A stretch of 64,000 nt of DNA from Bacilli bacterium (GTDB lineage Bacteria; Bacillota_I; Bacilli_A; RFN20; CAG-826), in contig JAZRZD010000002.1 in the NCBI GenBank assembly GCA_045601085.1, positions 6,106-70,105 on the forward strand, in the 5' to 3' direction. The stretch's first letter is position 1; each line of letters begins with the position of its first letter. The notes beneath the pieces were generated by a model. The model did not search any database and was not told the DNA's origin. It was given only the letters and a program-made list of their open reading frames with translations. Made by a program: the position numbers and the translations under genes. Positions 8,594 through 51,432 of the stretch are shown here, piece after piece.

Positions 8594-8820
8594 CCTTGTG
8601 CCTCCTTTTTGTAAACTATCCGAATTACTCCGGCAAAACAAAAGTTAACATATATAAAATATTTAATCAAATACCCATATAGCGTTCCATATTATAAATA
8701 ATATAGTTACTTATATATAAACTAATAATATAGTATTTATTATTTAAATATGGAAAAATTTTATTAAAAAATTATTCCATAATAAAGTATTGATAATTAT
8801 AGGATAGATGATATTATAAA

Positions 8821-8880
8821 GATGCCAAAGTGCTAGAAAAAATTAAAGAAAAGAGAGGGGTTGCAGCCACTCTCTTTTTC
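8821..8880 (+). ncRNA. Putative orphan sRNA 2
   Basis: TTGATA-N16-TATTAT promoter (8790-8817), diverged 5' seed, same terminator family, no peptide gene opposite. Confidence 0.5.
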
Positions 8881-8955
8881 ATTATCTATTAATAATTCTA
8901 GAGAGTAGCACCACTCAAAAAGTATTGATAAATGGTACCACTATGATAATATATA

Positions 8956-9016
8956 GGTATCAAGGATCTAGACAATCTAAAAAAGAAAGAGAGTGGTTGC
9001 ACCCACTCTCTTTTTT
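8956..9016 (+). ncRNA. Putative antitoxin sRNA 3
   Basis: Promoter 8925-8952, GGTATCAAGGATCTAG 5' end, shared bidirectional terminator. Confidence 0.6.
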
Positions 9017-9045
9017 CATTTACATCTGGCGTCAAGAATCTAGAC

Positions 9046-18411: not shown

Positions 18412-19105
18412 CTTGATTCACCTCAGAAAGTTTAAGAAGTTTGTCTTTCTTATTTTCTTTCATTGTGTAGGAATCATATTGATAAATAGGTATTCCTTTT
18501 AATCTAGCTAGGCCAAATATCTCATCAGATGCTGGACCATATACAATTATACCAGTTGGTTCAAGTGTATCCACTACTCGCATGACTTGATCCGCAAATA
18601 TATAACGATTATCAAGACGATTAGTAAATCCATGTGTACCAATGGCAATAAGTGTATGTTTAGGAAAAGCTTCTAAACAAGATAATGTTCTATTATCACC
18701 TATTCTAACATTTGGAATGATTTTAATTCCTTGATTTGCAAAATAATAGGTGATAGCTAGATTAAGATATATTTGACTCTTTTGAACCACTAAAGGCATA
18801 TTATCGTAAGGACTTGGATCAATACCTATAACCATTTGATATTGTTGTAGTTTTTCAACATATCTTATTGGATTATTTAAAATAGGGGTAAATCCAGCAT
18901 CATTACAATAAAAGCACATTGCAGTAATACTAGGGTCCACTACATCTTGTCTTCTATCCCACTGTATTATTTCTTTTGGAAGGTCAGTGGCAACCATCCA
19001 CTCTTCGATTATTGGAAACTCGTCGGTTTCAGTACGTCTAGTGCCATCGATGAGGTAAGCTAAATAGACGTCCCTAACATAGGGAGTTTTTGATTTTCTG
19101 AGCAT
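18401..19105 (-). CDS. DUF4417 family protein A
   Basis: FYCND...P..Y...L.....IG.DPSPY.NMP...GIKIIPNV pattern of DUF4417; paralogue at 30477. Confidence 0.8.
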   Translation of the reverse strand: MLRKSKTPYVRDVYLAYLIDGTRRTETDEFPIIEEWMVATDLPKEIIQWDRRQDVVDPSITAMCFYCNDAGFTPILNNPIRYVEKLQQYQMVIGIDPSPYDNMPLVVQKSQIYLNLAITYYFANQGIKIIPNVRIGDNRTLSCLEAFPKHTLIAIGTHGFTNRLDNRYIFADQVMRVVDTLEPTGIIVYGPASDEIFGLARLKGIPIYQYDSYTMKENKKDKLLKLSEVNQDER

Positions 19106-19145
19106 ATTTCGCTCCTTTCTGCACGTTTTTCGTGCTAATTAAAGC

Positions 19146-19219
19146 GAGATATGCTACTATTCATTTATCCGATGTGCTTCAGCATATCTCTAATCGTGAC
19201 CATTCGCACTGGTTACGAT
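19146..19219 (-). promoter_or_regulatory. Conserved double-hairpin leader upstream of DUF4417 A
   Basis: 10-bp stem with TGCGAA loop plus GAGATATGCT/AGCATATCTC stem; homologous to 30356-30428. Confidence 0.7.
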
Positions 19220-19284
19220 TTTTTTAGCTTTATTATTTTTTATTGGCGTTGCGCCTTCTCCTTTCTTGTTCCAAATCATGTCAT

Positions 19285-23087: not shown

Positions 23088-23951
23088 TTAAATTTCGCCT
23101 TTCCTAACACTTTCTAATATTTCTGAATCAGCATTCTTTATTATTTCTACAAATTTACTTCCTAAAGATAAAAATAAATATTTGGTTTGAATATCAACAA
23201 CATAGAAAGGTGCATTCTTCTTATAGATAAGCGAATTCTCTTCCACATCATTTAATCTAAAAAATGTTCTGTTTAAAAAGCAATAATATATTCTCATCAC
23301 ATAATTGCAATCTGGCGAAGGAAAATTTGACATCGAAGAGAAAATTTGTTCCTTTCTTTCTTTATCAACTGCCGCTTTATCAAACTCATTAAATGCCACA
23401 TCAGCCCAATTCAAAATCAATTCATCATCATTATCTAAATCTGGAAAGCAACTTCTAACAAGGGCAGGAAAAGTATATTTAACAAAATCATTAAAAAATA
23501 ATGAATCAAAATCTCCTATATTTCCAATTTTTTCAAAGAATATTTTGTTTGTTCTAAATATACAAATAGTTGAGCATAAACAATCAACCCAGTTAAATAA
23601 TTGCTTTGATTTATCATACTTAAGTCTATCATTGCCAAAAGTCTTATCATTGATTACTAAGTTACAAATCTCTGAGATTCTTTTATGTTTAATCGCACTT
23701 GATGCAAAGACAGATTCTGTAAATGAATAATAAAGCTTAGCATTATCGCTATCTATATAACAATCCGAGCCAAATGAATTTCTATTTGCTTCCGCCGAAG
23801 AAATTTCTGTTGCAGAAGAAAAATTCTCGTTTTGATAGTTTTTAGGTCTCATCCATAAACCATCTTTCAATTCAAGAATAGGGTTCCAGCCATCCATTTT
23901 AAAGATTCGGTTAGAATTAGTTAATAAGTACCTACATTGAAAATAAAACAT
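23088..23951 (-). CDS. Hypothetical protein co-transcribed with R-M genes
   Basis: 287 aa ORF 2 nt downstream of the endonuclease stop. Confidence 0.7.
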   Translation of the reverse strand: MFYFQCRYLLTNSNRIFKMDGWNPILELKDGLWMRPKNYQNENFSSATEISSAEANRNSFGSDCYIDSDNAKLYYSFTESVFASSAIKHKRISEICNLVINDKTFGNDRLKYDKSKQLFNWVDCLCSTICIFRTNKIFFEKIGNIGDFDSLFFNDFVKYTFPALVRSCFPDLDNDDELILNWADVAFNEFDKAAVDKERKEQIFSSMSNFPSPDCNYVMRIYYCFLNRTFFRLNDVEENSLIYKKNAPFYVVDIQTKYLFLSLGSKFVEIIKNADSEILESVRKGEI

Positions 23952-23953
23952 AA

Positions 23954-25441
23954 CTACAATCCATAATAATCATTAACAAAATTGTTAATAACATTTGTAA
24001 TATTTTGGCCCATATATCTATTAGCTAAATTTTCAAAAAATGAAAAATCAATAAATCCAGTTTGCGATGCATTGTAACCACTATAACAATAATTAGCTAA
24101 AGCTTGAGCCGTAATTGCAACAATTGGAAAACCAACAATATCACCAGAAACACCATGGGCAAAGCGAGAAGATACAACAATACAATATTTAGACCTGTGA
24201 ATACGTAAGTGATTAGATAATCTCATAGGATTTAAAGATTGTGTTGATGTTCCCGATGTTTTCCCATCAACATTAATATTGTAGAACGAATCATCATCAT
24301 CTCTAACTGCACAAAGCAAATCAGTATCTCCTGATCCGCTAATAATAGAAACATTTTCAACTTGTTGGAATAATTCGAAGACTGGCTTTAATGCGTTTTC
24401 TAGATCTTTGCCATCTCTAGAACCATATTTTGATGCATGAACCATAGCATCAATAATCTCTGAAACTTCATTATTTCTTTCATATTGTTCAGAAACAACA
24501 CTTAGATATTTTAATGGTCTTGTTTGGTAAACGCCTAATATATAATCCTCTTGTGACAAAATATCTTTATCGGCAGGAGTTATTGGAGCTTCAAAAGCAC
24601 TAAATTTTTCAACCAATTTTTTTGCGATATCTCTCAAATCAGGATTTATCATTACATAACCACTACACTTTTTGCCAGAATCGTAAGCATCGTTTCTTTT
24701 TGTTCCACAATTACCATGATTAAAGTAATGTAAATATCCATCATTATAATTTTCATCTTTACGAATTTTTAGAACACCAAAATCCCTAAACATTCTAAAG
24801 AAATAATAGTTAAATTCATGAAAAACATTAGCAAAGACATCATCATAGTTGTCAACAGATTTGAATAATTGATTCTTTTGGAAAAAATTTAATTTTCTAA
24901 ATTCAAGAATGCTGTCAATTAATTCATCATAAAATTCACTATTAATTGTTTCAATAAATGGGACAAAATAGCAAAATTCATCTATATACATTTTTTCGCC
25001 TAGGCGCTTATCAGTTAGTAATTTTACAATAAGTCTACCAGCATTTATCTTAAAGCAAGATTGTGTATCACTGAATGGATGAGGATATTGCATAGAAAAC
25101 AGATTTATTAATGACATTTTTGCAATATTTTCCTCGCTTTCATCTCTCATCAAACTCGTTGCCATAGGAGAAGGAACTAGCTTATTTTTATATTCGGGTA
25201 AACTATATCCAAACATATAAAATTTGAGTTCGCTTAATCTTACGCCCATTGTGTTAGCTGATCCTTGCGAGCTTCTTCCCTTATATGTTCCGTTTGATTT
25301 TAGTTCTCTTAATAAGCGTGTTTTAGTAGTGTAATTATCTAAACGATTATTAGCATGTAAAAATTCAATCATCAATTCTGCAGAACTGATATTTTTTTGA
25401 AATATCCACTTGTGTTCCTTTGTCCTTATTAAATCAATCAT
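23954..25441 (-). CDS. Type IIS restriction endonuclease (HgaI-like)
   Basis: 495 aa, C-terminal PD-(D/E)XK-like GDTDLL...INVDGKT; follows two m5C MTases. Confidence 0.75.
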   Translation of the reverse strand: MIDLIRTKEHKWIFQKNISSAELMIEFLHANNRLDNYTTKTRLLRELKSNGTYKGRSSQGSANTMGVRLSELKFYMFGYSLPEYKNKLVPSPMATSLMRDESEENIAKMSLINLFSMQYPHPFSDTQSCFKINAGRLIVKLLTDKRLGEKMYIDEFCYFVPFIETINSEFYDELIDSILEFRKLNFFQKNQLFKSVDNYDDVFANVFHEFNYYFFRMFRDFGVLKIRKDENYNDGYLHYFNHGNCGTKRNDAYDSGKKCSGYVMINPDLRDIAKKLVEKFSAFEAPITPADKDILSQEDYILGVYQTRPLKYLSVVSEQYERNNEVSEIIDAMVHASKYGSRDGKDLENALKPVFELFQQVENVSIISGSGDTDLLCAVRDDDDSFYNINVDGKTSGTSTQSLNPMRLSNHLRIHRSKYCIVVSSRFAHGVSGDIVGFPIVAITAQALANYCYSGYNASQTGFIDFSFFENLANRYMGQNITNVINNFVNDYYGL

Positions 25442-26490
25442 TTCTTTCCTATCCCACTACATATCGCTTTTGCGAAATTTGGTGGTATAGCCTCCCCTAT
25501 TACTTGTCTAATAAAATTATCAGTAGCCCATTCGGGCAATTCCCAATCAGGATTGATTGATGAAACAATAAAAAGTTCTCTTAAAGTCAAAACTCTTGGA
25601 TCTGAGTAAGTTCCATCTTTTAACATTCTACCAGGATGTGCATTATTATGCCCACCTAAATTTCCACTATTCATAGCTCTAGCAGGAGATGGTTCATCCC
25701 ATTTCATTCTTTTGTATGTATTATGAAATCCTTTAATAGGATCTCCATTTGGCTTTTTGGGATAATAAACAGGGTTTTTTAACGCTGATTTTCCCTCCGG
25801 TGTATGCTTCATAGCAAGAATTTCTCGTTCATTATGAGTTTTAGCGAAATGCCACTTTAAACTGCTTGATTCACCTGGATTTAATGATGGTAGATTTCCA
25901 ATACATTCTCTCAACGTTATTTCTTTAGATTTTTTTGGATTAGACCAATTTAGATTTTTCTTCCATATTTTAATAAAACCACGGGGTCTACTTTGAGGCA
26001 CATTGTAATCTTTTGCGTTAAGAATGAATGATTCGATATTATATTTTTCAGAATACTTTATTTTACAAATTTCTTCTAATTTCTTTAATTCGCCATTAAA
26101 TGGAAAATACAACTTCAAAAACTTCGGAACATTTTCAATTAAAATATAATCGAAATCATTGTCATCGATAATATCGAAAACATAAAAAACCAAATAATTT
26201 CGTTTGTCTGTCGAATATTCCTTTTTGCCTAAACTGCTCATACCTTGACATGGAGGTGTGGCTAATAAAAACTTGCATTTTTCTTTTTTAATTTCATTAT
26301 TTACTTTTGTAAACACATCATCATTTGTGATATCACCCGAAAACATTTTGCAATCTGGATACAAAAATGAATGTAAATCACATCTCTTTGGTAAAAGTTC
26401 ACTTGCGACTTTGATATCTAAACCACAATCTTTTAGATATAATTCAGCAATACCAGCAGATGAAAATAAAGAAGCACCTTTAATTGGCAT
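25438..26490 (-). CDS. DNA (cytosine-5) methyltransferase M2
   Basis: SLFSSAGI, ATPPCQG, IENV, QSRPR, GEAIPP. Confidence 0.92.
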   Translation of the reverse strand: MPIKGASLFSSAGIAELYLKDCGLDIKVASELLPKRCDLHSFLYPDCKMFSGDITNDDVFTKVNNEIKKEKCKFLLATPPCQGMSSLGKKEYSTDKRNYLVFYVFDIIDDNDFDYILIENVPKFLKLYFPFNGELKKLEEICKIKYSEKYNIESFILNAKDYNVPQSRPRGFIKIWKKNLNWSNPKKSKEITLRECIGNLPSLNPGESSSLKWHFAKTHNEREILAMKHTPEGKSALKNPVYYPKKPNGDPIKGFHNTYKRMKWDEPSPARAMNSGNLGGHNNAHPGRMLKDGTYSDPRVLTLRELFIVSSINPDWELPEWATDNFIRQVIGEAIPPNFAKAICSGIGKK

Positions 26491-27550
26491 ATTTAATACC
26501 TCCCACAATTTTCATTACTAGTCTTGGAGGAATTCCTTCACCAACAATATATCTAATTTGTGATTCAGAAATATTTGCAGGCATATCAATGTCAGGATCA
26601 ATCGAAGACAAAATAAATAATTCTCTAGGAGTTAGAACTCTGGCATCAGAATATGTTCCATCAGATAATTCTCTACCAGGATGAACATTACTTTGCGAAG
26701 AAATACAATCATTTCGCATTGTTATAGTTGGAGCAGGAGCATCCCATTCAATTCTTTTAAAAGTAGCAGCAAATCCTTTCACTTTCTTTCCATTTTTATC
26801 TTTTGGATAGTAAATTTTGTTTTCAAATGCAGAATGTCCAGTAGGCGTATGTTTCATGCAAAGAATATGCTCATCAGTATGTTTTCTTGCATAATGATTT
26901 TTAATACCACTATCCTGTCCTGCTTCAATTGATGGCAAATCTCCAATTGCCTGCCTAACAGTAACAATTTTTTCAGTTTTTGGCATCTCCCAAATATTAC
27001 CTTTTTTCCACATTCTAATAATTCCTCTTTTTCTAGATTGAGGAACACCATAGTCTTCAGTGTTGAAAACATGGTAATCTATCTCATATTTTGCGCCAAA
27101 CTTATCATTAAGAATCTCTAATAGCGAAACATTTTCTTTATCTTTATATAAATATAACATCTCATAGAAACGAGTGACATTTTCAAACATAACAAATGTA
27201 GGCATTACTTTTTCAATAATTTCAACAGCATCAAAAACCAAATAATTTCTAAAATCATTTTTCATTGCTTCTAGATCTTTGTTTTTGCCTATTAAAGAAG
27301 CACCCTGACATGGAGGAGTTGCCATAATAAAATCTACTCCGGCCTTTAGTGCCTTATCTACTAAAATATCTTTAGTTTCTTTTTTTGTTATATCACCGCA
27401 GACAACATCTGTGTTTTTATTGTAGAACTTATAAAATTCACATCTCTTTGGTAAGAGTTCATTAGCGATAACAATATTGACATTTGTCTTTCCGAGACTC
27501 ATCTCTCCAATACCGCCACCACTAAAAAGCGACATTCCCTTAATTTTCAT
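26480..27550 (-). CDS. DNA (cytosine-5) methyltransferase M1
   Basis: SLFSGGGI, ATPPCQG, FENV, QSRKR, TITMRND.ISSQ.NVHPGR as recalled for M.HgaI; start MKIKG after GAGG. Confidence 0.92.
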   Translation of the reverse strand: MKIKGMSLFSGGGIGEMSLGKTNVNIVIANELLPKRCEFYKFYNKNTDVVCGDITKKETKDILVDKALKAGVDFIMATPPCQGASLIGKNKDLEAMKNDFRNYLVFDAVEIIEKVMPTFVMFENVTRFYEMLYLYKDKENVSLLEILNDKFGAKYEIDYHVFNTEDYGVPQSRKRGIIRMWKKGNIWEMPKTEKIVTVRQAIGDLPSIEAGQDSGIKNHYARKHTDEHILCMKHTPTGHSAFENKIYYPKDKNGKKVKGFAATFKRIEWDAPAPTITMRNDCISSQSNVHPGRELSDGTYSDARVLTPRELFILSSIDPDIDMPANISESQIRYIVGEGIPPRLVMKIVGGIKYAN

Positions 27551-27566
27551 ATCTTTCCTCAAACCC

Positions 27567-27616
27567 GACGTATGGGGTACGTCAGACATTATACACTATT
27601 TTTCGATAACTGTTAA
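27567..27616 (-). promoter_or_regulatory. R-M operon promoter with downstream palindrome
   Basis: TTAACA-N17-TATAAT followed by GACGTA-N5-TACGTC. Confidence 0.6.
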
Positions 27617-28227
27617 CGGAACTGCTTTAATTCAATTATAATTTTCTTTTTTATTGGAATATCGTAAATATTTCTCACAATCGCCATTTTAAGCAGATAA
27701 TCTATTGGGATTTTGAAAATTACACAAATTCTATGCAATGTTTCTATAGAAGGTAGTCTCAAGCCTTGTTCTATATCAAAAAGTGTTGTTCTATCGATTC
27801 CAACCATGTTTGCTAGTTCAGACTTATTATATTGATTTGTAACTCTTAAATATTCGATTTCTTTACCTAACAAAACCGGACTAATTTTTCCAAATAACGG
27901 ATCGCTTTCGTTATAAAAAACTGAATACCACTTTGGATATGCAGATTCAAAAGATTCATGAAGATGTTCAGGTGGCCTTTCATTTGGATTATGATATGCA
28001 AGATACTTTATCATTTCTCTTTCTTTTGGTGTTGTTAAGGCCATGAATTTTTTATCTAATTCAATTATCTTTTCAATTTCCATCTGCTCTTCAATTTTAA
28101 ATTCAAGCAAACGGCAATGATAGTTATAGACTCTTTCTTGAATTCGATAATGCGTTCTGTGGTGTCTAAGATATCTACTAAACCCCATTCTAGTCCTTGC
28201 AAATACAACTCCATCAAAAGTTCTCAT
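27613..28227 (-). CDS. Protein with C-terminal XRE HTH
   Basis: KSELANMVGIDRTTLFDIEQGLRLPS. Confidence 0.75.
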   Translation of the reverse strand: MRTFDGVVFARTRMGFSRYLRHHRTHYRIQERVYNYHCRLLEFKIEEQMEIEKIIELDKKFMALTTPKEREMIKYLAYHNPNERPPEHLHESFESAYPKWYSVFYNESDPLFGKISPVLLGKEIEYLRVTNQYNKSELANMVGIDRTTLFDIEQGLRLPSIETLHRICVIFKIPIDYLLKMAIVRNIYDIPIKKKIIIELKQFR

Positions 28228-28526: not shown

Positions 28527-28603
28527 TGGTACGCCTAGTAGGACTCGAACCCACAACGTCCAGATTCGAAGTCTGGCATTCTATCCAGTTGAATTATAGG
28601 CGT
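28527..28603 (-). tRNA. tRNA-Arg(TCG)
   Basis: Cloverleaf ACGCCTA...TAGGCGTACCA, loop CTTCGAA. Confidence 0.93.
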
Positions 28604-28848
28604 ATGTATATATTATAAGGAAAAATAAAAACTTAAATCTTTTTAAAATTTAATTATCTTAGTAAGAATAATCACAAAATCAGTATTTGATAATTCAGAT
28701 GACCATAAAAATTCACTCGACCCCTATATAATAAAGCCATATTGTTCACTATTTAAAATATACATATCAAATCCAATAAAAAAAATATTTTGATTTACTG
28801 TTAACAAATCGTAGAAATATGATAAAATGTTTACAGAGGTAAAAGTAT

Positions 28849-29898
28849 ATGATTGAAAAGAAAATCAAATATTTCAGATTAAAAAATGGAATGACTGTAG
28901 AAGAACTTGCTGATGCAATTGGTTGTACAAAAGCCGCAATTTCATTGTATGAAAACGGGGAAAGAGAACCAAGTATTGATATTTGCAAAAAAATCGCTAA
29001 AGTTTTAAACATTCCATGGGTCGAATTGTTTTCAAGGGATGATGGAAAGCTTGTTTTTGATCATATAAGCTTTAGAAAAAAACAAAAAGCATCAAAAACT
29101 GATGTTGAACTATTAAAAACTGATGTTGAACAACAATGCTTTAACCGCATCTCTTTAATGAATATTGTTGGTGTTATTAACTATAAAGTTTTTAAACCTA
29201 AGAAATTATCTTTTGATAAAACTATAGGAGAAAATGCAAACTTAATTAGATCTTCTTTAGGAATACCATCTTCAGGTCCAATTTATTCTATTACAAATAT
29301 ATTAGAGCACTCTGGAATTATTGTTCTTTCATTTGAATGTGCAGAAGAAATAGATGGTATTAATGGCCTGGTCAATGGTATGCCTTACATATTCTTTAAT
29401 ACAAAAAATAAAACAATTGAAAGACAGCGATTCACTCTTATTCATGAGGTGTGCCACTTATTCTTTAATAATCTTGAAGACAATCGTGACGAAAAAGAAA
29501 TAGAAAAATACATTAATTTAGTCGCAGGGAATGTTTTGATTCCAGATAGTGACATTTACTCTATATTTGGAAGAACAAATAGAAACATAAGTATATATTT
29601 AAGAAATAATGTAGCTAAACAATACAAAATTGCGCCGTCATGTCTATTAAATAGACTTTTAGAAACTGGTGTAATTACAAAAACATATCATAGAAATTAT
29701 TTTATTTTTTTGAATAAAAACTGCGGGCGAAAAAACGAGAAGACTTTGTTAGATTTAATTAAAGATAATGAGAAGCCAACTATTTTTACACAACAAGTCT
29801 ACTTGGCTTTATCAGAGGAACTAATTTCTGCCTCAAAAGCAGCAGAATTTTTAAAGATTCCCCTATATGATGTTATGCAAAATATGAGGGTTGAATAA
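28849..29898 (+). CDS. XRE-HTH / ImmA-IrrE metallopeptidase fusion
   Basis: N-terminal HTH (MTVEELADAIGCTKAAISLYENG), RFTLIHEVCH HExxH. Confidence 0.88.
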   Translation: MIEKKIKYFRLKNGMTVEELADAIGCTKAAISLYENGEREPSIDICKKIAKVLNIPWVELFSRDDGKLVFDHISFRKKQKASKTDVELLKTDVEQQCFNRISLMNIVGVINYKVFKPKKLSFDKTIGENANLIRSSLGIPSSGPIYSITNILEHSGIIVLSFECAEEIDGINGLVNGMPYIFFNTKNKTIERQRFTLIHEVCHLFFNNLEDNRDEKEIEKYINLVAGNVLIPDSDIYSIFGRTNRNISIYLRNNVAKQYKIAPSCLLNRLLETGVITKTYHRNYFIFLNKNCGRKNEKTLLDLIKDNEKPTIFTQQVYLALSEELISASKAAEFLKIPLYDVMQNMRVE

Positions 29899-29899
29899 A

Positions 29900-30313
29900 A
29901 TGCAAAAATTCTTTTATTGCGATTCTTGTTTTTTAATAACATGTTTCCAAAATGGAAAACTTAATTCTTTATCGCAATATAAAGACTATTTTTATATATC
30001 CAATACGCAAATTATTGGTGAATTACTTAAACCACAAGAATTAGCAACCATTGTTAGAAAATCAATAAGTATTATTATGGACGATAGAGAAGAAATTGTT
30101 ACTAAAACAACGGAGTTTTATATAGAATTTGCGACCCTATCTTTTTATGATTGTCTATGCATGGCTTATGCTTTTTTAGATGGTTATTGTTTAATTACTG
30201 ATGATATAGCGTTACAAAAAAAATGCGCTATTTTGCATATTAATATTAAAACATCAAAAGATATCGAGAATATATATTTAAGCGGAGGTGATTTATGTGA
30301 GAATTTAAAATGA
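29900..30313 (+). CDS. PIN-domain protein
   Basis: YCDSCFL, LSFYDCLC.AYA, LITDD.AL acidic PIN pattern. Confidence 0.7.
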   Translation: MQKFFYCDSCFLITCFQNGKLNSLSQYKDYFYISNTQIIGELLKPQELATIVRKSISIIMDDREEIVTKTTEFYIEFATLSFYDCLCMAYAFLDGYCLITDDIALQKKCAILHINIKTSKDIENIYLSGGDLCENLK

Positions 30314-30355
30314 TAATTAGTAAAAGAGTAATTATAAAAAAGAGAAAGTAAAAAA

Positions 30356-30428
30356 ATCGTGACCAATGCGAATGGTCACGATAAGAGATATGCTGAAGCA
30401 CTCTCGGTAAGTATATAGTAGCATATCT
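30356..30428 (+). promoter_or_regulatory. Conserved double-hairpin leader upstream of DUF4417 B
   Basis: Perfect ATCGTGACCA/TGGTCACGAT stem and AGATATGCT/AGCATATCT stem. Confidence 0.7.
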
Positions 30429-30476
30429 AATTTTTGATTTGTATTTCCAATTTTGGAAGAAAGGTTAAATTTTATT

Positions 30477-31184
30477 ATGTTACACAAATCTAAGTCACCC
30501 TATATAAGGGACGTCTATCTTGCTTACCTCATCGATGGCGCTAGACGTACAAAAACGGATGAATTTCCGATAATCGAAGAGTGGATGGTTGCCACTGAGC
30601 CTCCAAAAGATATTATTCAGTGGGATAGGAGATGGGATGTTAAAGAGCCATCTAATATAGGAATGTCATTTTATTGTAATGATCCAACATTTCAACCAAT
30701 TTTATCCAATCCAAAAGCCTATACAGAAAAATTAAGGGAATATGAGCTCATAATCGGTGTTGATCCAAGTCCTTATGATAATATGCCACTTTGGGTCCAA
30801 AAAAGCCAAATAGGTTTAAATTTAGGTATTACATATTATTATGCATCTCAAGGGATTAAAGTTATTCCAAATGTTAGACTAGGCGATAATCGAACATTAT
30901 CATCATTAGAAGCTTACCCTCATAACACTTTAATAGCGATTGGCACTAACGGTTTCATCAAAAAAACACAAAATCGTCTTATTTTTGCTAAACAAGTACA
31001 GGTAATAGTAGATACACTAGAGCCATCCGGAATTTGTGTATATGGTCCTTTACACAATGAAATATTTGATTATGTAAGGCTAAAAGGAATTCCTATTTAT
31101 CATTATGAGTCCTATGCAATGAAAGAAAATGCTAAAGATAGGGAGCGTAAACTTTCTGAGTGTGATATAAATGAAAGGAAATAG
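30477..31184 (+). CDS. DUF4417 family protein B
   Basis: Aligns end to end with DUF4417 A; start moved to MLHKSK. Confidence 0.8.
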   Translation: MLHKSKSPYIRDVYLAYLIDGARRTKTDEFPIIEEWMVATEPPKDIIQWDRRWDVKEPSNIGMSFYCNDPTFQPILSNPKAYTEKLREYELIIGVDPSPYDNMPLWVQKSQIGLNLGITYYYASQGIKVIPNVRLGDNRTLSSLEAYPHNTLIAIGTNGFIKKTQNRLIFAKQVQVIVDTLEPSGICVYGPLHNEIFDYVRLKGIPIYHYESYAMKENAKDRERKLSECDINERK

Positions 31185-31716
31185 CCCATTATTCTCTAGT
31201 TTCACAGCCATTAGTGGTTTAGCAGGGATGTATAGTTCGTATTCTTCTTCGCCACTCAATGGAAATTCACAACCCTATCAAGTTAAATATTCTGTTTATG
31301 CTAAAATGATGAAAAAAGATATCGAACATGGAATTTATAATCCAAAAACTGGATACTCAAAAAATCCAACCGCTCGATATTTGGACTCGATGATTAATGG
31401 CAATTACATCAAAGACAAGCATTACAATAAGCAAATGCCATATGTAATTACTACTGATGGACTAGTAATAATTGGAAGTAGAAATGGTAATGGCAAAACA
31501 CCAAGCAAAACACCCACTCCACACCCAACATTAATCGGTGGGACCGATCCAAAGGTCAAAATGGCTGGAATAGTTGATATTCGTGGTGGGAAAATATATT
31601 CTTACAATAATCAAAGTGGCCATTATCGACCTAATCAGAAATCGATGAAATGGGCTGATGAAGCTTTCAAAAATTACCCTAAACACAATGATTTTAAAGG
31701 AGGAATCATTTTATGA
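31171..31716 (+). CDS. Putative polymorphic toxin B
   Basis: YV..DG..IG...HPTL.GG...V.MAG...I.GG.I..YNNQSGHYRP motif recalled from Rhs/polymorphic toxin tips; N-terminus MKGNSPLF. Confidence 0.65.
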   Translation: MKGNSPLFSSFTAISGLAGMYSSYSSSPLNGNSQPYQVKYSVYAKMMKKDIEHGIYNPKTGYSKNPTARYLDSMINGNYIKDKHYNKQMPYVITTDGLVIIGSRNGNGKTPSKTPTPHPTLIGGTDPKVKMAGIVDIRGGKIYSYNNQSGHYRPNQKSMKWADEAFKNYPKHNDFKGGIIL

Positions 31717-32174
31717 AGAAACAATATAATAACAATATCAATAAAGAATTATTTAGTATTAATTTTCAAGAAGATTTTTCTGAAGCCGAAGTTGAACGAC
31801 TATCAAAAATAGCGAGAGAATTAATTAATGGTTTTGGAGAACAAATAGTTTTTAATAATTGGTTTGAGTATTTAAAAGAATCAATTAATGACAAATATTC
31901 CGCATGGAACTTTATGGTTGCTTTTTATAATTTTGATGGTCACAATTTTAAAATTAAAGATCCATATCCATTCCTTGGATTGTTGTTCAATAAATTAAAC
32001 CTATCATTAAATAAAGAACCATCATCAGATGAAGAAGAATCGATATTTGATACTTTTGATTCGATATATGCTTCTCTCTTAACAAAATCTGGAATAGTTA
32101 CAAAAGACGATTATTTCTACATCAACTTATACAGTGATAATTTATTTCAAATAGCTGTCAAAGAAAATAAATAA
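31713..32174 (+). CDS. Putative immunity protein B
   Basis: Acidic 153-aa ORF with ATGA overlap on the toxin stop, AAAGGAGG RBS. Confidence 0.6.
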   Translation: MKKQYNNNINKELFSINFQEDFSEAEVERLSKIARELINGFGEQIVFNNWFEYLKESINDKYSAWNFMVAFYNFDGHNFKIKDPYPFLGLLFNKLNLSLNKEPSSDEEESIFDTFDSIYASLLTKSGIVTKDDYFYINLYSDNLFQIAVKENK

Positions 32175-32348: not shown

Positions 32349-32424
32349 TGGTGGATGCTGAGGGGATCGAACCCCCGACCTTCTGTACGTCAAACAGATG
32401 CTCTCCCAGCTGAGCTAAACATCC
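32349..32424 (-). tRNA. tRNA-Val(GAC)
   Basis: Cloverleaf, loop TTGACGT, CCA. Confidence 0.93.
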
Positions 32425-32430
32425 ATGGGT

Positions 32431-32507
32431 TGGTGCCAACTACAGGAATTGAACCTGCAACCTTCTGATTACGATTCAGTTGCTCTACCAGATTGAGCTA
32501 AGTCGGC
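32431..32507 (-). tRNA. tRNA-Thr(CGT)
   Basis: Cloverleaf, loop ATCGTAA, CCA. Confidence 0.88.
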
Positions 32508-50373: not shown

Positions 50374-51432
50374 TTATTTACCTTCCTCGGTGGCTTTCTT
50401 TGCTTTTGGGGCGGCTTTCTTTGCTGGTTTTTTTGCTGGTTCATCGTTAGAAGCAGCTTTAGCTTCTTTAGCGATTGCTTTTTCTTCTTCAGCAACAGCG
50501 TGTGCTTTATCTTGTGAAGCAGCTCTTAAAGCTTGTTCTCTTTCATAAGCTTCTTGTCTAGCTTTTCTTTCTTCACGAATCTTTCTTAATTTTTCTTCGT
50601 TATCACGTTCTGTTTGTTTAATAACATCTTTCATGGTAACGCTTTCGCCTTCATCTTTTGTATAAGCAACAACGGTTTGTCCACCTTTGCTTTCAACAAT
50701 AGCATCAGCGATAACTGCTAAGATTAATGAAACACTACGAATAGCGTCATCATTTGCAGGAATAACATAGTCAATATTGTCTGGGTTGCAGTTTGTATCA
50801 ACAATAGCAAACACAGGAATATTTAATTTCTTTGCTTCATTAACTGCATTGTGTTCTGTCATTGGATCAACAATGAAGATGGCATTAGGAACTTTTCTCA
50901 TTTCCTTAATACCTGCTAAGTTTTTGATAAGCTTTTCTTTTTCTTTTCTTAATGCAGCGGCTTCAGTTTTTGGTAATAAATCAAGTTCACCTTCTTCATC
51001 TTTTCTTTCGAGTTCTTTTAAGTAACGAATACGAGATTGAATGGTCTTGAAGTTGGTTAATGTACCACCTAACCATCTGTTTGTGATATAGAAACTACCA
51101 CTTCTTAATGCTTCAGCTTCAACAGCTTCTTTGCATTGATCTTTTGTACCTACGAATAAGACCTTACCACCGTTATCAACGATTTCTTTGAGGGCCTTGT
51201 AGGACTCTGTGATTTGATTTACTGTTTGTTGTAAATCGATGATGTAAACGTTGTTTCTAGCGCCATAGATGTATTTCTTCATCTTTGGGTTCCAACGTTT
51301 TGTTTGATGACCGAAATGAGCACCTGCTTCTAAAAGCTTTCTCATTGTAATGATTGGTGCATCAGGATCATGCATAACTGTCTCCATTGTGACAGCTTCG
51401 GAATTGACTTCCTTAATTTCTTCTTCGCTCAT
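50374..51432 (-). CDS. rpsB: 30S ribosomal protein S2
   Basis: LLEAGAHFGHQT.RWNPKM, RWLGG.LTN; extended charged C-tail. Confidence 0.97.
   Translation of the reverse strand: MSEEEIKEVNSEAVTMETVMHDPDAPIITMRKLLEAGAHFGHQTKRWNPKMKKYIYGARNNVYIIDLQQTVNQITESYKALKEIVDNGGKVLFVGTKDQCKEAVEAEALRSGSFYITNRWLGGTLTNFKTIQSRIRYLKELERKDEEGELDLLPKTEAAALRKEKEKLIKNLAGIKEMRKVPNAIFIVDPMTEHNAVNEAKKLNIPVFAIVDTNCNPDNIDYVIPANDDAIRSVSLILAVIADAIVESKGGQTVVAYTKDEGESVTMKDVIKQTERDNEEKLRKIREERKARQEAYEREQALRAASQDKAHAVAEEEKAIAKEAKAASNDEPAKKPAKKAAPKAKKATEEGK

Follow-up and report, generated by a model that had tools for sequence, protein, structure and literature searches.

A predicted antisense small RNA gene in the leader of DUF4417 genes from uncultured gut Bacilli

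We analyzed a 64,000-nt stretch of the Bacilli bacterium assembly GCA_045601085.1 (contig JAZRZD010000002.1, positions 6,106 to 70,105), hereafter the window, which carries two copies of a non-coding element, each upstream of a gene for a protein of the DUF4417 family. The element is most likely a gene for a small RNA (sRNA) of ~59-60 nt, predicted on the strand opposite DUF4417. We consider it reasonably probable that this sRNA gene lies inside the leader of the DUF4417 mRNA and that the two together form a countertranscript switch. Judged by its sequence, the element looks like a previously unrecorded case of a known type of control, that by antisense RNA (countertranscript), in uncultured gut Bacilli with small genomes. 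DUF4417 itself is a domain of unknown function reported to be enriched in phages (bioRxiv 10.1101/2025.10.10.680097), and we found no solved structure that matched it.

The initial annotation of this stretch described a conserved double hairpin upstream of both DUF4417 genes, and the two inverted repeats are indeed there: they fold beyond shuffled controls and recur in related genomes upstream of DUF4417. Folding of both strands gave z-scores of -4.5 to -5.9, with none of 200 dinucleotide shuffles as good. Copy A has the same layout as copy B, reverse-complemented. The copies are 81% complementary over 96 nt; the two-hairpin core is visibly more similar, whereas the ~50 nt between element and ATG and the upstream flank are divergent. 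Across the assembly (0.79 Mb, 31% G+C, 34 contigs) these are the only two copies, and they stand upstream of its only two DUF4417 genes, which begin ~50 nt downstream of them and encode proteins of 234-235 aa. The elements and genes are as follows.

30356-30382 and 30386-30428, + strand: element copy B, ATCGTGACCA-ATGCGAA-TGGTCACGAT (hairpin 1, H1) followed by AGATATGCT...AGCATATCT (hairpin 2, H2)
19146-19220, - strand: element copy A
30477-31184, + strand: DUF4417 gene B, the putative regulated gene (Pfam PF14386, E 1.1e-24)
18401-19105, - strand: DUF4417 gene A (Pfam PF14386, E 1.1e-31)

Both copies sit in cassettes with a common gene order: an XRE-type helix-turn-helix (HTH) regulator with an ImmA/IrrE-like peptidase, the element, DUF4417, and two small overlapping genes. 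A terminator scan identified H1 and an adjoining run of seven T residues as an intrinsic terminator opposite DUF4417 in both copies, with 10-11-bp stems, 7-nt loops and T7 tails. The same scan found no sense-strand terminator within either cassette.

30350-30382, - strand: predicted intrinsic terminator of sRNA B (H1 stem-loop 30356-30382, T-run 30350-30356; terminator scan)
19192-19226, + strand: predicted intrinsic terminator of sRNA A (H1 19192-19220, T-run 19219-19226; terminator scan)

A covariance model of the element, model R1, yielded an alignment of 47 distinct sequences, in which covariation was judged by pair changes on both sides, with shuffling and slid controls. H1 was 99.4% paired, and 8 of its 11 pairs had changed on both sides; slid controls of the alignment were just 28-45% paired. 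About 40 cells of the H1 alignment were G-U on the antisense strand only, and the equivalent sense-strand cells were A.C mismatches. H1 was also stabler on the antisense strand in 40 of the 47 loci (mean -3.5 kcal/mol). That the single stem change in copy A (ATCGTAACCA/TGGTCACGAT) gives A.C in the DUF4417 sense but G.U on the other strand had been noticed from the outset. This reading of copy A was correct and follows a general rule, since G-U cells and stability favor the antisense strand of H1 across loci.

We also compared the upstream regions of ~70 DUF4417 homologues from genomes and metagenomes. In most of them a sense-strand A-run was followed by a hairpin 78-139 nt from the start codon, the sequence of which differed completely between lineages; the corresponding T-run was found in type-I loci and in most other architectures. 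What marks a Rho-independent terminator is therefore present on the antisense strand: a stable, G+C-containing stem-loop followed by a U-tract in both copies, and a stem kept as RNA on that strand by compensatory changes and by G-U pairs that occur only there. From these sequence features we conclude that H1, read opposite DUF4417, is a Rho-independent terminator and belongs to the predicted antisense sRNA.

The other end of this unit is marked by a promoter motif. The sole invariant block of 29 aligned type-I copies is A..TG.TA.TAT, read on the antisense strand inside H2, which takes the form of an extended -10 element, TGCTACTAT or TG(C/T)TAATAT, in type-I loci. Lineages with unrelated surroundings mostly retain TGnTAnnAT at the same place (for example TGTTAAAAT, TGCTATCAT and TGGTATTAT), and loci L051 and L117 have a perfect TGCTATAAT at the -10 position. 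The distance from the extended -10 to H1 is 31-33 nt in type-I loci. With transcription of the sRNA taken to start ~7 nt past the -10 hexamer and to end in the T-run, the following features are predicted (MFE, minimum free energy).

30415-30423, - strand: predicted extended -10 promoter TGCTACTAT of sRNA B (TGnTAnTAT invariant in 29 aligned loci)
19152-19160, + strand: predicted extended -10 promoter TGCTACTAT of sRNA A (from sequence and the type-I alignment)
30350-30408, - strand: predicted sRNA of copy B, ~59 nt, comprising a 5' tail, hairpin H2b, linker, terminator hairpin H1 and U-tail (MFE -22.8 kcal/mol, z -6.7)
19167-19226, + strand: predicted sRNA of copy A, ~60 nt (MFE -21.4 kcal/mol, z -6.0; model R1 94.6 bits)
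30385-30405, - strand: H2b, the 5' hairpin of sRNA B, GAGAGUGC-UUCA-GCAU(A)UCUC
19171-19188, + strand: H2b of sRNA A, GAUGUGC-UUCA-GCAUAUC, with a conserved G.U

H2b is built from GAAGCAC and one arm of H2. GAAGCAC had been described as a conserved loop motif; the conservation stands, but the heptamer is the 5' arm of this different, sRNA hairpin and not a loop. In 35 of 47 loci the antisense strand gave the stabler H2b, which contains a near-invariant G.U (A.C on the sense strand) and one pair that covaries. At the sequence level, the element has what countertranscript control demands of its own promoter, namely an extended -10 opposite the target mRNA and inside its leader. Two further promoter placements were considered. 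One, which we dropped, put the antisense promoter in the AT-rich spacer after a third hairpin (H3, below), outside H2, where the sequence is unconserved, unlike TGnTAnTAT inside H2; the idea that the whole of H2 lies inside the sRNA fell with it. The other, a sense promoter made of TATAGT and a CTGAAG -35, is possible but weaker than the antisense reading, having just 15-nt spacing, no TG motif and a variable first hexamer position.

One locus separates this unit from its usual surroundings. Orphan copy L138, identical with L009 (genome G007 contig 2, ~50948-51034), has lost the outer arm of H2 and has no DUF4417 gene beside it, yet a perfect TGATATAAT, H2b, H1 and its T-run remain. Because the orphan keeps exactly promoter, hairpin and terminator, we take these to be the conserved core. 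Among the possibilities raised by the initial annotation, an antisense RNA is thus strongly supported: the T-run terminator, the strand-specific G-U pairs and the invariant extended -10 all lie opposite DUF4417. In a search for trans targets of the sRNA within the two cassettes, the only strong site was the cis site, and other sites differed between the copies.

The element is shared widely by the window's relatives and travels with variable neighbors. Model R1 matched 46 of 401 genomes of the order, which belong to 16 of 71 genera and carry 1-3 copies apiece, nearly all from the family to which the window belongs; in a class-level search, 11 of 399 genomes had matches. Other genomes and metagenomes likewise have the element ahead of DUF4417 homologues, so it is no chance feature. 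Behind the leader, 24 of 29 new loci carry a member of the DUF4417 superfamily, drawn from at least four very divergent subfamilies; among the others, two carry a different, 170-aa gene, in one the leader is followed immediately by a toxin-like gene, and one is the orphan copy. Similarly, at least four unrelated gene families are found upstream of the same element, which is ~85% identical where the adjacent DUF4417 protein is ~25% identical. Named records of close DUF4417 relatives are gut and rumen metagenome-assembled genomes labelled Bacilli, Candidatus Enteromonas, Acholeplasmatales or Erysipelotrichaceae.

No established family accounts for the element. At the gathering threshold of Rfam release 15 only tRNAs pass in the window, and at E<=10 just sub-threshold terminator look-alikes are added; the best match in 30300-30500 is CyaR_RyeE on the - strand, with 23.6 bits against a threshold of 47, driven by the terminator. 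Similar DNA was found in none of 50,697 phage records and in none of 72,556 plasmids, and no close DUF4417 relatives were found in IMG/VR. The initial annotation had named two observations that would tell against a novel element, a lack of covariation in other DUF4417 loci and a match to a known one; covariation was present, and no known family matched.

We then considered the sense strand. In its order of segments, S1 is the 5' arm of H2, S2 follows, S3 is the 3' arm of H2 and at the same time the sense copy of the sRNA promoter, and S4 is the Shine-Dalgarno (SD) and AUG region of DUF4417. Because one arm of H2 lies upstream of the predicted sRNA start, H2 can form in the DUF4417-sense transcript or in DNA only. 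The double hairpin once proposed as a functional unit on one strand accordingly comes apart: H1 belongs to the antisense sRNA, and H2 to the sense mRNA only. In the outer arms of H2, 97.2% of cells are paired and 4 of 10 pairs show double changes.

30386-30428, + strand: H2 of copy B; S1 (30386-30394) pairs with S3 (30420-30428), -11.6 kcal/mol
19146-19190, - strand: H2 (S1:S3) of the sense leader, copy A, -15.4 kcal/mol

Open reading frames imply that sense transcription enters the element, as far as sequence alone can indicate. Upstream reading frames terminate at or inside the A-run, and at ~15 loci (including L126, L128, L129, L131, L135, L139, L140, L054, L056, L058 and L115) a short open reading frame (sORF) of 19-23 codons, led by a strong SD (for example MNKEQTKAKKIVTSANGHD), crosses H1 and stops directly before H2. 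The peptides follow the pattern M..KAKKIVTSANGHD* and are short, basic and hydrophilic. Both sORFs of the window begin where the preceding gene stops, or shortly behind it.

30310-30351, + strand: 13-codon sORF (MIISKRVIIKKRK), with an ATG that overlaps the upstream stop codon (ATGA); it extends as far as the start of the A-run
19190-19279, - strand: 29-codon sORF that crosses the A-run and H1, with a TAG stop directly before S1

We rejected a conserved peptide across H1, as the sORF is absent in other loci and its frame shifts with the length of the A-run, and treated it as an accessory feature. The short frames that cross H1 may be leader reading frames like tap or mok.

S3 is able to pair with either of two partners. 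Paired with S1, it forms H2 and leaves the ribosome-binding site open; paired with S4, it forms the base of a long hairpin, with H3 at its tip, in which the site is hidden. When the sense leader was folded from the 3' arm of H2 to the start codon, a single long hairpin with S3:S4 at its base was obtained in almost every locus.

30418-30483, + strand: predicted sequestering hairpin of the DUF4417-B leader (H3 apex 30445-30458, SD 30459-30464, ATG 30477-30479; MFE -19.1 kcal/mol, z -5.3)
19099-19157, - strand: predicted sequestering hairpin of the DUF4417-A leader (H3 apex 19121-19135, start codon 19103-19105; MFE -23.7 kcal/mol, z -6.0)

In copy A, S3 (AGCAUAU, CUCGCUU) pairs with the SD and AUG (GGAGCGA, AUAUGCU); in copy B, GUAGCAUA of S3 pairs with UAUGUUAC of the start region, a complementarity with p 0.033 against local control windows. 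Other loci achieve the same arrangement with other letters: CAUAGUAGC with GCUACUAUG in L135, GCAUGUCC with GGACAUGC in L149, AUUUUAUCACGGUU with AACCGUGAUGAAU in L111, and a 14-bp S3 duplex over the SD in L117. We ranked the complementarity of each start region to S3 against ~200 control windows of the same locus. Of 37 type-I loci, 27 had a start region ranked within the top 5%, as did 13 of 18 loci of unrelated architecture. The registers and sequences of S3:S4 vary between lineages, and H3 has at least a dozen different stem sequences. When the sRNA-complementary part was blocked in silico, accessibility of the SD and AUG went down in 14 loci and up in 2. The suggestion of a cis-regulatory RNA, also made in the initial annotation, gains support in the form of an mRNA leader, from the covariation of H2 and the complementarity to the ribosome-binding site.

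In several lineages, codons 1-3 of DUF4417 (ATG TTA CAC/CGA versus ATG TTA AAA/AGA) co-vary with the -10 hexamer (TACTAT versus TAATAT). Since these codons and the sRNA hexamer vary together, RNA pairing seems to constrain the N-terminus of the DUF4417 protein.

These features suggest how the proposed switch could work. The cassette, from the XRE/ImmA regulators through the small reading frame, leader and DUF4417 to the toxin-like and immunity-like genes, would form one operon whose transcript crosses the element. Being a perfect complement of H1, S1 and S2 in this mRNA, the sRNA would bind and remove S1, upon which S3 would close on S4 and DUF4417 translation would be turned off; translation of the overlapping downstream genes would probably drop too. 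Without the sRNA, S1:S3 would form first during transcription and open a window of translation. Cutting of the sRNA-mRNA duplex by RNase III and collision of converging polymerases may add to repression. The strand-asymmetric G.U of H2b fits this scheme, as the sRNA hairpin stays stable while the competing S1:S2 hairpin of the mRNA is weakened. Promoter, two or three helices and start codon context would all constrain the same bases, and such overlap would explain the high conservation of the element.

Several observations weigh against this model. The closed S3:S4 fold is ~7-8 kcal/mol stabler than S1:S3 at equilibrium, so the open form would have to be a co-transcriptional, metastable state, which calls for a kinetic argument and is the weakest step of the model. 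Blocking the sRNA-complementary part changes nothing in 25 of 41 loci. RNAalifold, applied to the leader from S3 to the start codon, returned no consensus S3:S4 helix, as pairing registers differ between lineages; support for S3:S4 is conserved complementarity sequence by sequence, not covariation of columns. H2 has mismatches on both strands (~4 G.U antisense, 2 sense), and the AT-rich heptamer of the sRNA promoter gives TATAGT in the sense direction, where a second promoter is possible. All of the promoter, the ends of the sRNA and the operon transcript are predicted, and the loci are phylogenetically related, so their counts are non-independent.

Alternatively, the sRNA may be real but act otherwise than by refolding S1, S3 and S4: mainly through RNase III cleavage or destabilisation of the operon mRNA, through transcriptional interference with the converging operon polymerase, as a type I-like antitoxin against the downstream toxin genes, or by partnering the DUF4417 protein as its RNA. 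Taken alone, the sRNA unit has good support, is more conserved than DUF4417, and survives in orphan L138 with neither leader nor DUF4417; moreover, S3:S4 is favored even without it. We nevertheless regard this explanation as rather unlikely. It leaves unexplained H2 and the complementarity of S3 to the start region, which are kept across unrelated sequences; the search of the cassettes gave no conserved trans target; and the presence of the same sRNA beside highly different DUF4417 subfamilies argues against a specific protein-RNA partnership.

The converse explanation, a purely sense-strand leader of hairpins 1, 2 and 3 that is sensed by a protein, ribosome or ligand, with the antisense signals incidental, appears quite improbable. 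H2, H3 and S3:S4 are sense-strand structures with covariation or conserved complementarity, and a sense sORF crosses H1 in many loci, yet the G-U pairs and T-run of H1 are specific to the antisense strand and the A-run before H1 has no sense-strand role. A sense leader would also not account for TGnTAnTAT, invariant in type-I loci and persisting as TGnTAnnAT in most other lineages amid changed surroundings, or for the orphan that retains exactly promoter, hairpin and terminator.

Very unlikely, finally, is H2 as a DNA palindrome, whether an operator for the neighboring XRE-family repressors that flanks a promoter or a recombination or cassette-boundary site: XRE/ImmA genes do lie directly upstream, the arms flank the -10 box, H2 is mismatched on both strands and the element stands at the junction of variable regulator modules and variable DUF4417 subfamilies, but the XRE proteins of A and B share just 30% identity over 30 residues while the arms do not differ, the genes upstream of the element come from at least four unrelated families, no integrase or recombinase gene is associated with it, and the arms range from 9 bp at 27 nt apart to ~20 bp at 14 nt apart, which suits a hairpin and not a fixed dimer site. 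An XRE operator was rejected for the same reason, as we saw no half-sites of fixed spacing that co-vary with a cognate DNA-binding protein. The operator or recombination site offered in the initial annotation is accordingly disfavored, given almost unrelated XRE proteins beside identical arms and an arm spacing that varies between lineages.

The preferred countertranscript switch has precedents. In pMV158 (copG-rnaII-repB) and plasmid R1 (copB-copA-tap-repA), a regulator gene is followed by a countertranscript in the intergenic leader, in some cases by a leader peptide, and then by the effector gene (PMC5717011); the Inc RNA systems are built alike (PMC8053102). The pMV158 countertranscript is very small, has its own promoter and intrinsic terminator on the opposite strand, and inhibits translation of the downstream gene (PMC5717011). 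In R1 and in the IncI/IncB system (Inc RNA-repY-repZ), the distal gene is controlled indirectly, through a short leader reading frame and an RNA structure that hides the ribosome-binding site of the effector (PMC5717011; PMC8053102).

Our element resembles the modules of pMV158/pLS1, Gram-positive rolling-circle plasmids, in having regulator and effector in one operon with an opposite-strand intergenic countertranscript, both here predicted. The host phylum and the size class of the RNA are similar, RNAII of pMV158 being ~50 nt. The element differs in having no sequence or Rfam relationship to pMV158 and in lying in a chromosomal XRE/ImmA-DUF4417-toxin-like cassette, whereas the pMV158 module is part of a replicon; and since the predicted sRNA target is 70-130 nt upstream of the start codon, action here would be indirect, via refolding.

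In the R1 and Inc RNA systems the antisense gene overlaps an intergenic leader, within an operon of repressor, leader peptide and effector. The predicted sRNA gene is placed similarly, and many of its loci also have a short sORF across the region complementary to the sRNA. Unlike them, the element's sORF is not universal, no pseudoknot is evident, and there is no homology to CopA or Inc RNA; direct translational coupling is also unlikely, because the sORF ends ~95 nt before the DUF4417 start. To our knowledge, the use of the sense copy of an sRNA promoter as an anti-ribosome-binding-site segment is not known from those systems. The element was without homology to known countertranscripts in Rfam, plasmids and phages; it would work like such systems while standing outside their families.

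The predicted sRNA also recalls type I toxin-antitoxin systems of the hok/mok/sok kind, where a short antisense RNA (~60 nt) is encoded in an mRNA leader and the folding of that mRNA governs its translation. These systems are defined by a small toxic, usually membrane, peptide, whereas the gene behind our leader encodes DUF4417, of 234-235 aa; the predicted sRNA also does not overlap the regulated start codon.

A bolder version of the switch, which we advance tentatively and regard as possible but doubtful, gives one stretch of DNA three roles: promoter of the antisense sRNA, arm of the anti-sequestering helix, and anti-ribosome-binding-site segment of the opposing mRNA. It would act as a type I-like, addiction-style gate that silences swappable, DUF4417-led toxin cassettes in genome-reduced gut Bacilli. 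If true, coding of this sort would explain why the element is conserved above any surrounding protein, and polymorphic-toxin-like loci would have a layer of control that had gone unrecognised. The sRNA, if real, would represent a new, well-defined antisense family, with a covariance model and dozens of natural compensatory variants, and an RNA regulator from uncultured genome-reduced gut and rumen Bacilli, a clade with almost none known. Countertranscript logic, best known from plasmid copy-number control, would have been reused for chromosomal XRE/ImmA-DUF4417-toxin-like cassettes. It would also offer a handle on DUF4417, as expression of a gene controlled so tightly by RNA is likely to carry a cost or to be toxic. 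With its numerous natural variants, the pairing scheme is directly testable.

The two cassettes differ in the details of their gene content. The XRE/ImmA genes are fused in cassette B (28849-29898) and split in cassette A (20468-20046 and 20049-19285), and only cassette B has an additional 140-aa gene between XRE/ImmA and the element. A promoter-like site rated good lies upstream of cassette B (28801-28828). Cassette B (28849-32174) is flanked by tRNA-Arg on one side (28527-28603) and by tRNA-Val and tRNA-Thr on the other (32349-32507), consistent with a small island inserted among tRNA genes. Inside both DUF4417 genes, a short palindrome, CCCTA..TAGGG (19071-19085 and 30496-30513), covers codons 7-11 (P-Y-V/I-R-D); it is kept in many DUF4417 homologues and could be a coding constraint or a further RNA element.

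Variant loci were seen in other genomes. In L127 (genome G330), the gene that lies ~130 nt behind element and leader is not DUF4417 but one whose product starts MKGNSPLF. In L067, a second full element copy (2803-2889, 89 bits) lies ~600 nt downstream of that locus's DUF4417 gene, so a tandem cassette arrangement is possible. Upstream regions of another DUF4417 lineage (L079-L086, L092, L110 and L119) have two ~26-nt boxes (TGTTAGAAAnTAGCGAACAnGTAAAC) flanking a GGGAGAAATCCC hairpin and T-run, which looks like repeated operator sites around a small terminator. A third type, found at L049 and L072, has TTATAGTCGACAAA twice, is operator-like and contains no sRNA-like unit.

Elsewhere in the window, model R1 gave weak matches at 8799-8885 and 8934-9021 (+ strand, E 0.16-0.5), which probably share only the generic promoter-hairpin-terminator shape. 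The region between the cassettes (23088-28227, - strand) is probably a restriction-modification cluster: it has two tandem paralogous genes for C-5 cytosine methylases (25438-26508 and 26480-27589), one for an HTH protein (27613-28227), and two without annotation, of 495 and 287 aa.

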